Positions 30,095 through 33,837 of a DNA stretch of 64,000 nucleotides are shown here, piece after piece (position 1 is the stretch's first letter; each line of letters opens with the position of its first letter). This DNA is from Escherichia phage Ec_YwIITB1: sequence record PQ356294.1. One strand, written 5' to 3'. The notes under the pieces were generated by a model. The model was not told where the DNA came from and made no database searches. It saw only the letters and a program-made list of their open reading frames with translations. Position numbers and translations under genes: made by a program.

Positions 30095-30276
30095 AAGGAA
30101 TTTATATAATTAATAAGTTCTTGTTCTTTATCGTCGAAATCTTTACACAGTTCTTCGTATTCGTCGGTATTAAAAGGACCGCATTCATCACAAACTTTTT
30201 CCAATTCGCTATTTTTATCCATAACTTCGTGAATAAGAGAAAATAGTCTGTCTTTTTGTTCTTTGCTTAGGCTCAC
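30091..30276 (-). CDS. small acidic protein, family member 6; apparent GTG start
   Basis: 61 aa; start codon at 30274-30276 is GTG overlapping the stop of an upstream 56-aa ORF. Confidence 0.5.
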   Translation of the reverse strand: MSLSKEQKDRLFSLIHEVMDKNSELEKVCDECGPFNTDEYEELCKDFDDKEQELINYINSL

Positions 30277-30279
30277 AGT

Positions 30280-30450
30280 ATGTCAATCCCCAAAAGTTTT
30301 AAAATGACTCGTTTCTGATTCATAACCGCTACGATTGAATGACCGTTGGGGTCTTTTTGACCTGATCCAATTATAAATCCTTTTTGTGCGGAAAGTTCAA
30401 TCAAAACATCAAGTTCACGTAATAATTGATATTTTAAATCATCGTTCATT
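30280..30450 (-). CDS. small hypothetical protein (absent from the ORF track)
   Basis: 56 aa ORF; ATG 30448-30450 with GAAGG RBS. Confidence 0.4.
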
Positions 30451-30673
30451 TTGGTTTACCTTCTTTAACGAAATCGGGATAAGGATAAAATCCTGAATAA
30501 AATCCTTCACCTTTATGATTGATACATCCTTTATTAGAACAATAGCACCAATAATCGAAATCACAAGCCATTTCATCATTACATAAAGCAAAAACAACTG
30601 GCCATTTACACTTTTCGCAGTGGGCATTTTTAAGAATACTAGTTTGGCTCATAACCATGTAACCTTTAAACAA
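30446..30673 (-). CDS. cysteine-rich small protein
   Basis: 75 aa with multiple Cys/His; preferred over the overlapping frame 30439..30627. Confidence 0.45.
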   Translation of the reverse strand: MFKGYMVMSQTSILKNAHCEKCKWPVVFALCNDEMACDFDYWCYCSNKGCINHKGEGFYSGFYPYPDFVKEGKPK

Positions 30674-30861
30674 TATTCTTCTACGTGCTGTTTACGACCT
30701 TTCTTATCAATAAAGGTATATTCAACGAATGTTCCAATATAGTCTTTATCTACACCATGCGGACTATTAATTGGACATTTAGTACGGCAAATGCGTTCCC
30801 ATTGACGAATAATTTCCACTTTGTTTTTAGGATCAAACGGATGCGGGTAATGTACTTTCAT
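30649..30861 (-). CDS. hypothetical protein
   Basis: 70 aa ORF. Confidence 0.5.
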   Translation of the reverse strand: MKVHYPHPFDPKNKVEIIRQWERICRTKCPINSPHGVDKDYIGTFVEYTFIDKKGRKQHVEEYCLKVTWL

Positions 30862-31312
30862 AATCCACCACTATTAAATCAATATCAGGAGTAAACATGT
30901 CGATTAATTTAGAAACCTTATCCCAATCGCCGCCTGCAATACCACAACCGATACGTGGAATGTAAATTACTGGTTTAAACAAAAGGGTTTCTGCCTGTAG
31001 ATTTAATTCTATCATGCAGTTTACTAAAGCACCATAATCAAGATTAGGACCCGGTTCGTATTGTGTATACAAATTATAGCACATACTAAATCCTGTAGGA
31101 TTATGTTTAAAAACAATAGACATATCACCTAATTTATCACGAGAACCGTACTCGGTAGTGGTTTTATCTATTTCTAAAATTTTGGGATAGGCTCTTGCTA
31201 ATTGACCTGCTACGCCAGAGCCCATTGTGTGGAAGCAATTACACCCGTGCGCAATAATATTACCTTGAAGAAATAGGGCGACAATATCGCCCTTGATATA
31301 TTTTACAATCAT
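30833..31312 (-). CDS. macro-domain-like protein
   Basis: Motifs GDIV, MGSGVAGQLARA and IPRIGCGIAGG resemble macrodomain signatures. Confidence 0.55.
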   Translation of the reverse strand: MIVKYIKGDIVALFLQGNIIAHGCNCFHTMGSGVAGQLARAYPKILEIDKTTTEYGSRDKLGDMSIVFKHNPTGFSMCYNLYTQYEPGPNLDYGALVNCMIELNLQAETLLFKPVIYIPRIGCGIAGGDWDKVSKLIDMFTPDIDLIVVDYESTLPASV

Positions 31313-31650
31313 CTAGTACTCAATCCTCGATTATAAGAATCTACTAAACGGTCAACCATTGAATGACAAGCGGCTTTATCTTTCTCCTCCGCAACTGAAC
31401 ATTCTAAGGTATTCCACTTTTTAGCATATCGTTTTAACAATGTATCATTTTTGTATCTGCTTGATTTATCTCTTTCTCCGTCTTTATATGCATATATTAA
31501 TTTCTGCGCAAATTCAGCTTGGCATGCTTTATTTTTCCCACAATAATCCGCGGCAGTACGGTTTACATACTCTCTAATTTCAGTATATGATGTATCTGCT
31601 AACGCAGAAAATGAAATTAATCCTATACATAAAACCAAAATTTTAGTCAT
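31309..31650 (-). CDS. secreted/periplasmic small protein
   Basis: N-terminal signal peptide MTKILVLCIGLISFSALA; four Cys. Confidence 0.55.
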   Translation of the reverse strand: MTKILVLCIGLISFSALADTSYTEIREYVNRTAADYCGKNKACQAEFAQKLIYAYKDGERDKSSRYKNDTLLKRYAKKWNTLECSVAEEKDKAACHSMVDRLVDSYNRGLSTR

Positions 31651-32188
31651 TTACTATTTCCAAAAGTTTATTGTTTTTAAGGTAATTAGCCTTTTCTAGG
31701 ACTTCAGAAGCATATTTAGAACCTGCTTTAACATTCCATCCCGAATTATAAGAGGATATCGCCTTTCTTATATCACCCTTATGTATATTTAACCAATAAG
31801 AAAGTTCAATGTACGCCCAGGAAGCTGAATTGGACCGTTTATTCAACATTCTTTTTATTTCAGCATCGGTCATATTATAACCAAGTTCCTTGACTCTCGC
31901 TCGCATAGTAGGCAAATAATTTTGGAACATTCCATAGGCATGATGCTTTGGTTTAGATTTTAAATTAACTCCGGCAGAGCTTTCTTGCCACAAAATAGCA
32001 GCCATTATATGACCTAATCCGCTCTTGTGGATATTTTTGTGTGTTTTATATTTTCCATCCTTAGAAAATTGTTCCCCGAATTGATACGCGTAGCGCATGT
32101 TATCGAGTTGGACATTACTGAAAGTATGCTCGGAGCTATGTGCCATCATTGAAATGGCCAATAGACCAGCGAGTAGTGCTTTTCTCAT
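31643..32188 (-). CDS. secreted lytic transglycosylase-like protein
   Basis: Signal peptide; SLT-like motifs WQESS, GMFQ, YNSG. Confidence 0.55.
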   Translation of the reverse strand: MRKALLAGLLAISMMAHSSEHTFSNVQLDNMRYAYQFGEQFSKDGKYKTHKNIHKSGLGHIMAAILWQESSAGVNLKSKPKHHAYGMFQNYLPTMRARVKELGYNMTDAEIKRMLNKRSNSASWAYIELSYWLNIHKGDIRKAISSYNSGWNVKAGSKYASEVLEKANYLKNNKLLEIVND

Positions 32189-32195
32189 GCTTACC

Positions 32196-32657
32196 TCATT
32201 GAGTTTTAATTACTGCTTTAGAAGCCTTTCCTGGTAAACGACGACTGTTAATAATTGCCATCCTACATTGAAGTGACGGGTCTTTGAACTTCGCATTAGG
32301 TTTACAAACTGTAAATCCAAGCCAAAGATTTCCATCTGTGATTTCTAAACGTCCAGGACGGTATTCAACCCCATCAATAAAATCCTCATCAATGTCAGGA
32401 CGTGGAGGCATACTCAGGAATTCATTAACTTCTAAAACATGGTCTTTTATTTTGTGGAATAATTCAAAAACATATGTCTCATCAATCTCCCGTTGAATTG
32501 CACGATCAAGAAGATGCTGAGAATATTTTAGATGAAACGATGAGACCCCTGCTGCTTTTGATGCCTCACGAATCTCATTGTTAATTTGACGAAACTCCGA
32601 CTCAAAGTGACGACGAAGCTTATTTCGACGGATAAAAACTTCTGTGTTGATAGTCAT
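32196..32657 (-). CDS. regB: RegB endoribonuclease
   Basis: 153 aa, T4 RegB. Confidence 0.85.
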   Translation of the reverse strand: MTINTEVFIRRNKLRRHFESEFRQINNEIREASKAAGVSSFHLKYSQHLLDRAIQREIDETYVFELFHKIKDHVLEVNEFLSMPPRPDIDEDFIDGVEYRPGRLEITDGNLWLGFTVCKPNAKFKDPSLQCRMAIINSRRLPGKASKAVIKTQ

Positions 32658-32684
32658 GTTATTCTCCTCTTAACTGATAGAAAA

Positions 32685-32714
32685 ATTATACCACAGTCAA
32701 GAGGAAAAGTAAAC
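32685..32714 (-). promoter_or_regulatory. early promoter upstream of regB
   Basis: Minus strand GTTTAC at 32709-32714, TATAAT at 32685-32690. Confidence 0.55.
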
Positions 32715-33261: not shown

Positions 33262-33475
33262 ATTCTACTTCCTCGCCCGTTCCCAAATCATATTCAACTA
33301 AACGAATAGGTTCATGAATGCCATATCCCTGAACAGAAATTTCTGTCGTAGGATAAATTCCACTAATATCACCCATATTCCACGCTTCATTAAATTGCTG
33401 TTCGCCTGAATTACTAAACCATTCTGCGAAAGCATTTAACACATCTTCAGAACCTTCAATAATTATCTTTGCCAT
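33254..33475 (-). CDS. hypothetical acidic protein
   Basis: 73 aa ORF. Confidence 0.5.
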   Translation of the reverse strand: MAKIIIEGSEDVLNAFAEWFSNSGEQQFNEAWNMGDISGIYPTTEISVQGYGIHEPIRLVEYDLGTGEEVEYD

Positions 33476-33837
33476 TACAAGCTCTCAGTAAAGGTACGAG
33501 CGATAACATCGCGCTGCTGTTCCGGAGTCAGAGAGTTAAAGCGAACTGCATAACCGGATACACGGATGGTCAGCTGCGGATATTTTTCCGGATGCTTAAC
33601 TGCATCTTCCAGCGTTTCACGACGCAGAACGTTAACGTTCAAGTGCTGACCACCTTCAATTTTAACTGTAGGCTGTGATTCAATTTCAATTTCACGGGCG
33701 TGCAAACCGTAGAAAATTTCTGGGTCTACAAAAGAGTCCTCTTTAAAGGTTTTAGAAACAATAATTCGTGCTTGAATACCATCTTCAAAATAAATAGTAC
33801 CTTTATGTGTGCCTTCAAGAATTTGATATGCTTTCAT
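33475..33837 (-). CDS. autonomous glycyl radical cofactor (GrcA/YfiD-like)
   Basis: C-terminal RVSGYAVRF glycyl-radical signature, as in pyruvate formate-lyase C-terminus. Confidence 0.8.

Follow-up and report, generated by a model that had tools for sequence, protein, structure and literature searches.

A diverged tk.4 macrodomain allele beside a predicted exported Vs.1-Vs pair in the early region of Escherichia phage Ec_YwIITB1

Three neighbouring genes of phage T4, tk.4, vs and vs.1, are the closest described counterparts of the locus considered here, which lies in a 64,000-nucleotide stretch of Escherichia phage Ec_YwIITB1 (sequence record PQ356294.1; hereafter the window, with positions counted from its first letter). 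In T4, tk.4 was the single hit against DarTG2, its clean knockout sensitised the phage, and the gene was named adfM, for anti-DarT factor Macrodomain (bioRxiv 10.1101/2025.11.20.689424); transposon reads in tk.4 fell from 288.0 to 45.3 with DarTG2 (log2 fold change -2.64, adjusted p 0; Data S7, 10.1101/2025.11.20.689424), and T4 without adfA and adfN is still DarTG2-resistant (PMC11825919). A related macrodomain, SCO6735 of Streptomyces coelicolor, takes ADP-ribose off thymidine in DNA and loses hydrolysis with the change Q85A, Q85 standing at the position of TARG1 K84 and DarG K80 (PMC9411070). The A1pp/macro similarity of Tk.4 was reported in 2006 in a paper which for Vs.1 proposed only 'some role in cell lysis' (PMC1524935), and beyond that suggestion we found no published specific function for Vs.1. 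For 50 years Vs has carried the label of modifier of the host valyl-tRNA synthetase (ValRS), a cytoplasmic function. We consider the joint best explanation of the window locus, with a probability of roughly 70%, to be that Tk.4 is a macrodomain protein, that Vs.1 is an exported SLT enzyme with Vs as its exported partner, and that the tk.4 allele was acquired by cassette exchange.

The window is assigned to Tequatrovirus. It is AT-rich (GC ~35%), and in a DNA search of phage records the 2.3 kb spanning the locus showed 98.6% identity with Shigella phage ESh26, the locus DNA matching 721 phage records in all, with T4-like phages making up all the hits listed. An initial annotation, made from the sequence alone, had described a macrodomain-like protein next to two signal-peptide proteins, and its three open reading frames (ORFs) are present on the minus strand where it had placed them: 159 aa at 30833-31312, 113 aa at 31309-31650 and 181 aa at 31643-32188. 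They correspond to tk.4, vs and vs.1 of T4, which were already known and carry the GenBank labels macro, ValRS modifier and SLT, and they sit in a minus-strand run (rI.-1, rI, rI.1, tk, tk.1-tk.4, vs, vs.1, regB, vs.3-vs.6) of the same order as in T4 (NC_000866). Because homologues were found in 2767 (Tk.4), 795 (Vs) and 2084 (Vs.1) phage records, the three genes stand far beyond chance. Transcription runs from vs.1 through vs to tk.4, downstream of regB, which places the secreted pair upstream of the macrodomain gene and not downstream of it, as had been supposed. The packing is tight, with an overlap of 8 nt between vs.1 and vs, an ATGA overlap (4 nt) of the vs stop with the tk.4 start, and an overlap of 29 nt between tk.4 and tk.3. 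Plus-strand ORFs of the region were disregarded, being short and having no homologues, and an Rfam scan of 29.5-33.5 kb gave zero matches.

Vs.1 (99% identity to T4 Vs.1) passes the Pfam SLT model PF01464 narrowly (E 4.8e-5, 23.4 bits against a cut-off of 21.3), while 22 of its 23 homologues match SLT independently, the best at 1.3e-7. The motifs that define family-1 lytic transglycosylases are a catalytic E-S, G-x-x-Q, A/S-Y-N-x-G and a distal Y (Blackburn & Clarke 2001). Vs.1 carries all of them, as E69-S70 (WQES), G86-M-F-Q89, S146-Y-N-S-G150 and Y159; the Glu69-Ser70 codons, at 31979-31984 on the minus strand, hold the predicted catalytic Glu of the fold, and E69, G86, F88, Q89, Y147, N148, G150 and Y159 show no variation across 23 sequences ranging down to 42% identity. 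This bore out the earlier mention of an SLT-like protein. In its model Vs.1 has the lysozyme-like SLT fold, with E69 at the C-terminal end of helix 59-70, and the values tabulated for Vs.1 were 12.5 for MltF, 12.4 for Slt, 11.4 for Slt70, 11.4 for MltC, 10.5 for EtgA and 10.2 for MltE. Sequence and profile searches of Vs.1 against the PDB returned nothing useful, its similarity to the single-domain family-1 enzymes (Escherichia coli MltE/EmtA and EtgA of type III secretion systems) and to the catalytic domain of Slt70 being too low for such searches. Unlike these enzymes, Vs.1 has an extra N-terminal helix and beta-hairpin (residues 25-50), is phage-encoded and early, and in T4-like phages has Vs after it without exception.

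Signal peptides for the Sec pathway were called where a basic n-region precedes 10-15 hydrophobic residues (the h-region) and the residues at -3 and -1 are small, and for both Vs.1 and Vs the calls rest on these features together with their conservation and with low AlphaFold 2 (AF2) confidence at residues 1-19 or 1-20. In Vs.1 the predicted signal peptide covers residues 1-18 (32135-32188, minus strand; MRKALLAGLLAISMMAHS, cleavage before SEH), and its N-terminus, MRK-ALLAGLLAISMMA-HS/S, shows the basic n-region, the hydrophobic core and a small-x-small motif, with a predicted local distance difference test score (pLDDT) of ~55 over residues 1-20. A signal-like N-terminus was present in 23/23 aligned homologues and also in those of Felixounavirus and Ackermannviridae, in which the family-1 motifs are kept as well. 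We thus predict that Vs.1 is an SLT enzyme with a single domain, widespread among large virulent phages, expressed early, exported and distinct from their endolysins. The fold and motifs are evident, and from them we infer that Vs.1 would work as a Sec-exported family-1 lytic transglycosylase on periplasmic host murein early in infection. As regards its occurrence elsewhere, in Felixounavirus the Vs.1-family secreted SLT gene stands directly after rIIA-rIIB and before pnk (locus L004, 4501-5049, Escherichia phage tootiki; L numbers are our handles for loci), and in Ackermannviridae it stands near gene 46 and nrdA.1 in the early region (L005, 2453-3070, Klebsiella phage May).

The 113-aa product of vs belongs by sequence to the family of the T4 'valyl-tRNA synthetase modifier', or tau peptide (PHROG 1256, phrog_1256 at E 5e-40; Pfam PF26829). 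It is 99% identical to T4 Vs (NP_049724), the differences being a 2-residue indel and one substitution, both in the signal peptide. The protein itself is the same; the difference lies in its interpretation, the label giving a cytoplasmic function where we predict export, disulfide bonding and coupling to Vs.1. The family is tiny and phage-only, with 7 cluster representatives among 1.84 billion proteins. The predicted Sec signal peptide of the window Vs spans residues 1-18 (31597-31650, minus strand; MTKILVLCIGLISFSALA, cleavage before DTSY), and its N-terminus, MTK-ILVLCIGLISFS-ALA/D, contains the n, h and c regions. The two signal-peptide proteins described initially, with predicted cleavage at MTKILVLCIGLISFSALA/DT and MRKALLAGLLAISMMAHS/SE, are hence backed by conserved features; a hydrophobic N-terminus was found in 42/42 distinct proteins at the Vs position. 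The predicted mature part (11.0 kDa) holds four Cys, arranged as C37-x5-C43 and C84-x10-C95. AF2 gave an overall pLDDT of 83, with values <50 at residues 1-19, and modelled with confidence a domain of four helices (20-37, 41-61, 68-84 and 89-110) in which each Cys pair brackets a helix-helix turn. These features point to an exported, small four-helix protein with two likely disulfides, and we regard export of Vs as highly probable. The initial description of a Cys-containing secreted protein therefore stood as far as signal features and four Cys go, while its classical identity as Vs had been missed. Searches for structural relatives outside the family in the PDB and BFVD gave none. His-tagged full-length T4 Vs went into inclusion bodies (PMC8076793). 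A lipoprotein reading of the window Vs (LVLC) was rejected, since Leu occupies position -1 and C8 is no conserved residue. In one T4-like subclade of five loci a lipobox 'ALSGC' (MKKLFVLLVVFALSGC...) replaces the type-I signal; these homologues lie at ~3549-3875 in L034, L037, L038 and L049 and at 2495-2821 in L035.

The pairing of the two genes was examined in 46 Straboviridae loci, made up of the window, Acinetobacter phage AC4 and 44 IMG/VR loci whose Vs.1 homologues reach down to 44% identity. In 46/46 a Vs-family ORF starts between -8 and +3 nt from the vs.1 stop. This ORF encodes 105-122 aa, the truncated copies in L019 and L037 excepted, with a hydrophobic N-terminus, a 'Y..GL' C-terminus and, in full-length copies, four aligned Cys. 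The Vs hidden Markov model (HMM) recognises most of them (E 1e-61 to 3e-4), and two that lie beyond its detection show the same pattern. The secreted pair, which had been called unusual, is thus kept throughout the T4-like phages. Such spacing suggests tight translational coupling of Vs to Vs.1, and Vs is most likely an envelope partner or regulator of the enzyme. Comparative evidence of this kind argues strongly for export of the Vs family and its coupling to Vs.1, and these are hard to square with binding of a cytoplasmic ValRS; a functional Vs.1-Vs partnership, inferred from the same comparisons, we hold to be an even bet. The proposal that Vs acts as an exported partner of Vs.1, instead of or besides modifying ValRS, is new here and unverified.

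As separate observations on this neighbourhood, in many non-Tequatrovirus T4-like phages a third signal-peptide ORF of ~140 aa directly follows Vs, with the consensus '...AW..L.GYPE...' and 2 Cys (L003 3321-3746; L031 3869-4303; L036 3809-4225; L040 3851-4243; L044 3823-4266; L047 3842-4267; L048 3812-4231). Acinetobacter and related loci have two extra small ORFs with a hydrophobic N-terminus, vs.1-vs lying there within a cluster of ORFs with signal-like N-termini.

Published transposon insertion tables for T4 (HIDEN-SEQ) score tk.4, vs and vs.1 all as non-essential. The same data (Data S7, S8) show vs and vs.1 each with 3-30 times fewer insertions than the non-essential genes that flank them, whichever of the listed conditions is considered. 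The values in the LB control were 26.6 for vs and 22.6 for vs.1, as compared to 179-767 for regB, tk.4, vs.3 and tk.3, and in M9Glc at 30 C they were 9.9 and 9.4 against 267-729 for the same four genes. When M9 was compared with LB, vs had a log2 fold change of -2.19 (adjusted p 0) and vs.1 one of -0.87 (p 0.0055, adjusted p 0.155). The authors of the tables comment on vs and ValRS only, not on vs.1, and call the biological role of the ValRS modification unknown. A further-reaching proposal, which we put forward tentatively and at somewhat less than even odds, is that in all T4-like phages Vs is an exported, disulfide-bonded envelope protein forming a two-gene module with an early periplasmic Vs.1, that the minimal-medium defect of vs would reflect a cell-wall function and not tRNA charging, and that the association with ValRS would be secondary or arise after lysis.

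Tk.4, the third protein of the locus, passes the Pfam Macro model PF01661 (E 3.7e-8, 33.8 bits against a cut-off of 22) over profile positions 2-117 of 118, and matches phrog_335 at E 4e-71; it is a stand-alone macrodomain without signal peptide. GenBank records call it 'macro domain-containing protein', PHROG and RefSeq 'phosphatase'. A family profile built from 24 diverse homologues and searched against the PDB found BT1257 (2e-19), TARG1 (3e-16), SCO6735 (7e-16), Poa1p (4e-14) and the DarG macrodomains (2e-11 and 2e-10), and coronavirus Mac1 only at ~1e-3. Because TARG1, SCO6735, Poa1p and DarG rank strongly and Mac1 weakly in this search, we place Tk.4 by profile in the ALC1-like clade (TARG1/DarG/SCO6735/Poa1p) rather than with the MacroD or viral Mac1 types; its alignments with human TARG1/OARD1 (PDB 4j5r) and yeast Poa1p (PDB 6lfu) are full-length. 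DarG models also match it (PADLOC DarG 3.4e-7; NCBIfam antitoxin_DarG 6.5e-7), in the macro part only, and against the NCBIfam equivalog NF048014 it reached 28.9 bits where 250 are asked, over model positions 2-142 of 338. Since these models cover the macro half only and the score lies far below the equivalog cut-off, Tk.4 is an orphan macrodomain and not a DarG. The suspected 159-aa macrodomain is thus supported by the Pfam, PDB profile and DarG model matches alike.

The active site can be compared with the described enzymes in some detail. Residues H22, G23, N25, Q84, G122 and G124 are invariant in the 24 homologues, and Gln84 (codon 31061-31063, minus strand), in an invariant N-x-Y-T-Q motif, takes the catalytic-Lys position of TARG1: in the profile alignment Q84 falls on the catalytic K84 of TARG1 and A126 on its D125. 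Tk.4 therefore lacks the residues of the TARG1/DarG-type mechanism (TARG1 K84 and D125, DarG K80), while Q84, H22/N25 and G122/G124 agree with the Gln active site of SCO6735, the equivalence with Q85 being drawn via TARG1 K84 and the H, N and G residues being placed on SCO6735 numbering by motif and not by a printed alignment. The phosphate loop PRIGCGIAGGDW aligns with PRIGCGLAGGTW of SCO6735 as a near match. Tk.4 and SCO6735 (PDB 5e3b) share Gln in place of the catalytic Lys, H-x-x-N and nearly the same loop (PRIGCGLAGGxW in SCO6735), and both are stand-alone domains of similar size; unlike Tk.4, SCO6735 is encoded on a bacterial chromosome and controlled by DNA damage, and hand mapping found no obvious Tk.4 equivalents of its DNA-positioning Lys34 and Lys89. 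DarG (PDB 5m3i, 5m31; NF048014) has a homologous macrodomain and presumably shares the substrate, ADP-ribosylated thymidine (dT-ADPr) in DNA, but it uses catalytic Lys80 and carries a C-terminal DarT-binding domain, whereas Tk.4 has Gln, no second domain and 159 aa against a model of ~338 positions. TARG1 acts on protein Glu-ADPr and Poa1p on ADP-ribose-1''-phosphate.

The window tk.4 sits between vs and tk.3, as an orthologue of T4 adfM should, with flanks 93-100% identical to T4. The window Tk.4 and T4 AdfM share locus, length class and family, residues 1-14 entirely and ~80% of the first 47, and every family-invariant residue; they differ in an overall identity of 58%, in a C-terminus 4 aa longer in the window, and in the loop, GCGIAGGD in the window and GAGIGKGN in T4. 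The anti-DarTG2 role, shown genetically for the T4 orthologue, would extend to the window allele because all family-invariant residues are kept. Tk.4 would on this account be a cytoplasmic stand-alone macrodomain with an SCO6735-type active site (Gln, not catalytic Lys), which most likely strips the ADP-ribose put by host DarT2 on thymidines of phage single-stranded DNA, and so act as an orphan antitoxin mimic. A parallel exists in AdfN, the NADAR protein of T4 gene 61.2 directed against DarTG1 (PMC11825919), which like Tk.4 is a phage orphan of an antitoxin ADP-ribosylglycohydrolase domain erasing the DNA mark of the toxin, but has an unrelated fold (NADAR and not macro), acts on guanosine instead of thymidine and is encoded at another locus. 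The anti-defence role that the initial annotation had suggested for the macrodomain is supported by the published T4 knockout, in which tk.4, as adfM, is needed against DarTG2. In OL964745.1, an Escherichia phage T4 isolate, the tk.4 match comes in two pieces, each annotated 'macro domain-containing protein', which suggests a frameshifted or interrupted adfM or a sequencing error.

While Vs and Vs.1 are each 99% identical to T4 at the protein level, Tk.4 is only 58% identical, and the DNA shows where this change falls. A divergent tk.4 cassette at 30865-31277 (minus strand), an apparent allele replacement relative to T4, lies within the conserved flanks: in sliding comparison with T4 the identity is 98-100% down to 31278, 43-62% over ~31190-30865 and 93-97% from ~30815. 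The allele discordance of Tk.4 and Vs.1 was then compared across 33 loci. Where Vs.1 identity to the window is just 66-67%, Tk.4 identity reaches 89-94%, whereas in T4-type loci, with a Vs.1 identity of 99%, Tk.4 identity drops to 55%. In the phage collection the window-type allele (at least 90% identity) occurs in 312 records and the T4-type in 224. Because a 13-nt difference at the tk.4 3' end shifts the stop codon, the window allele ends in ...YESTLPASV and overlaps tk.3 by the 29 nt noted above. We propose, from these comparisons, that the window allele was gained by cassette exchange with another T4-like lineage, a proposal which is new here and unverified. The block of near-100% identity to T4 stops exactly at the 3' side of a perfect 8-bp GC-rich hairpin (AGGGCGATATTGTCGCCCT; 31275-31293, minus strand), terminator-like on both strands and situated 20 nt inside the tk.4 5' end, which may mark the recombination junction. 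As a functional RNA the hairpin was rejected, its fold z-score of only -1.7 against shuffles being not significant.

For the timing of expression, the nearest strong promoter-like site for the tightly packed regB-vs.1-vs-tk.4 genes is an early sigma-70-type site before regB (32685-32713, minus strand; TTTACT-17-TATAAT with TG, 10/12 match, extended -10). In a promoter-motif scan none of vs.1, vs and tk.4 had a MotA-box or late-promoter match immediately before it, and internal middle or late promoters for them were rejected as candidates, with only two MotA-like matches, inside the vs and tk.4 coding regions, and no late ones. In T4 the three genes are classed as early RNA and middle protein, and mass spectrometry intensity rows are present for Vs and Vs.1 (PMC9697503 supplement). 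It is thus likely that vs.1, vs and tk.4 are expressed early from the regB promoter region, with two separate functions side by side.

Several considerations weigh against the joint explanation. The Vs.1 enzyme would not need Vs, because Felixounavirus and Ackermannviridae have Vs.1 homologues without a Vs-like neighbour. The low insertion counts of vs.1 could be polar effects on vs. Among PDB and BFVD structures no relative of Vs hints at an inhibitor or regulator. Vs was defined genetically and biochemically as a factor binding the cytoplasmic ValRS. In classical work it reportedly rescues a temperature-sensitive ValRS in vivo, and this favours a cytoplasmic pool of Vs. As for Tk.4, the window protein and T4 AdfM have different residues at 42% of positions, the phosphate loop included, and the substrate of Tk.4 is not readable from sequence because the family also matches Poa1p, an ADP-ribose-1''-phosphate phosphatase.

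Of the alternatives the likeliest, though we think it rather unlikely, holds that Vs is a cytoplasmic peptide binding host ValRS, its hydrophobic N-terminus being non-exporting or its pool only partly exported, and that the adjacency of vs.1 is meaningless. It can draw on the 99% identity to a T4 gene annotated as ValRS modifier, on a nutrient-dependent plaque defect of the delta-vs phage that is compatible with a role in translation, and on the size of the mature form, 11.0 kDa, which fits a factor reported to be of ~10 kDa. That same cleaved 11-kDa form, however, implies passage through Sec. A signal-like N-terminus and four aligned Cys have been kept across 42 distinct Vs-position proteins despite drift below HMM detection, one subclade has a canonical lipobox, and the gene is coupled to that of an exported enzyme in 46/46 loci. 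Binding to ValRS has been reported (Muller & Marchin 1975, 1977), but binding in a lysate could follow the mixing of compartments, and the 1986 deposit contains only 'ORF 60.9', for which we did not find the basis of its equation with vs. The textbook role of Vs as ValRS modifier is one that its sequence does not explain.

Exported partnership of Vs with Vs.1 has also to be set against the view, which we judge unlikely and slightly more so than the foregoing, that Vs.1 serves as an auxiliary enzyme of lysis or entry, or as a catalytically inert murein-binding protein, working alone and unrelated to Vs. The homologues without a Vs neighbour, which in Felixounavirus follow rIIA-rIIB, fit this view, as do some records that name such homologues 'putative lysin' or 'lytic transglycosylase' and the lysis role suggested in 2006. 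Transcription of vs.1 is early and not late, however, and T4 already has an endolysin (e) and a tail lysozyme (gp5). An inert protein is hard to reconcile with the invariance of every catalytic motif, and the tight coupling with Vs, universal in Straboviridae, speaks against independence in those phages.

For Tk.4, removal of ADP-ribose from DNA has to be compared with an improbable role as hydrolase of small ADP-ribose derivatives (ADP-ribose-1''-phosphate phosphatase or O-acetyl-ADP-ribose deacetylase) in nucleotide or NAD metabolism. The matches to Poa1p, at 4e-14 with the Tk.4 profile and 2e-9 with the single sequence, are in its favour, as are a weak NCBIfam O-acetyl-ADP-ribose deacetylase match (0.0058) and the PHROG, RefSeq and 2006 CDD annotations, which read 'phosphatase' or A1pp. 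The DarG models score better than the deacetylase model, however. Sensitivity to DarTG2 is the sole experimental phenotype of the T4 orthologue, and the Gln active site and PRIGCGxAGGxW loop fit SCO6735, a proven thymidine-ADPr DNA hydrolase; both activities can coexist in macrodomains and are not mutually exclusive. T4-like phages encode three ADP-ribosyltransferases, and tk.4 is early like them. That Tk.4 reverses or tunes this own ADP-ribosylation of the phage (Alt, ModA, ModB, RNAylation) and not host defence is nevertheless very improbable, as insertions in tk.4 carry no cost in LB or M9 when DarTG2 is absent, nothing linked the gene genetically to alt or mod, and the TARG1/DarG/SCO6735 clade acts on Asp/Glu esters and thymidine and not on Arg-ADPr, for which other macrodomains exist, such as MavL (PMC10951314).

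Some neighbouring features were noticed as well. The regB ribosome-binding site (32657-32690, minus strand; AAGAGGAGAATAAC-ATG) has a GGAG motif within it. This GGAG is the target cut by RegB itself, a known autoregulatory arrangement. Between tk.2 and tk.3 there are two minus-strand ORFs of 58 aa (30273-30449) and 75 aa (30446-30673), the latter Cys-rich with a 'Phage zinc binding domain' (PF23895, E 3e-29); both are absent from the corresponding spot in the T4 reference and found in many Tequatrovirus loci, e.g. L006-L010. The vs.6 orthologue (33475-33837, minus strand, 120 aa) is an autonomous glycyl-radical cofactor (GrcA/YfiD-like) with the motif RVSGYAV, annotated alike in related phages.

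Taken together, the initial interpretation of the locus is supported as essentially right, but the genes were known: as given, it re-discovers annotated T4 genes, and the anti-defence role of the T4 macrodomain was confirmed experimentally in 2025. The part worth testing is the discrepancy between Vs/Vs.1 and the label of Vs. In the published transposon data vs and vs.1 follow similar fitness patterns, the sequence features of Vs all point to export, and the envelope hypothesis would give the old ValRS question a concrete and cheap test. For the tk.4 gene, at least two alleles, ~55-58% identical, exist in Tequatroviruses and appear to be swapped as cassettes between T4-like lineages. Such swapping is the pattern expected of a counter-defence gene under diversifying pressure, and it predicts that the alleles would differ in their coverage of DarT2 variants.

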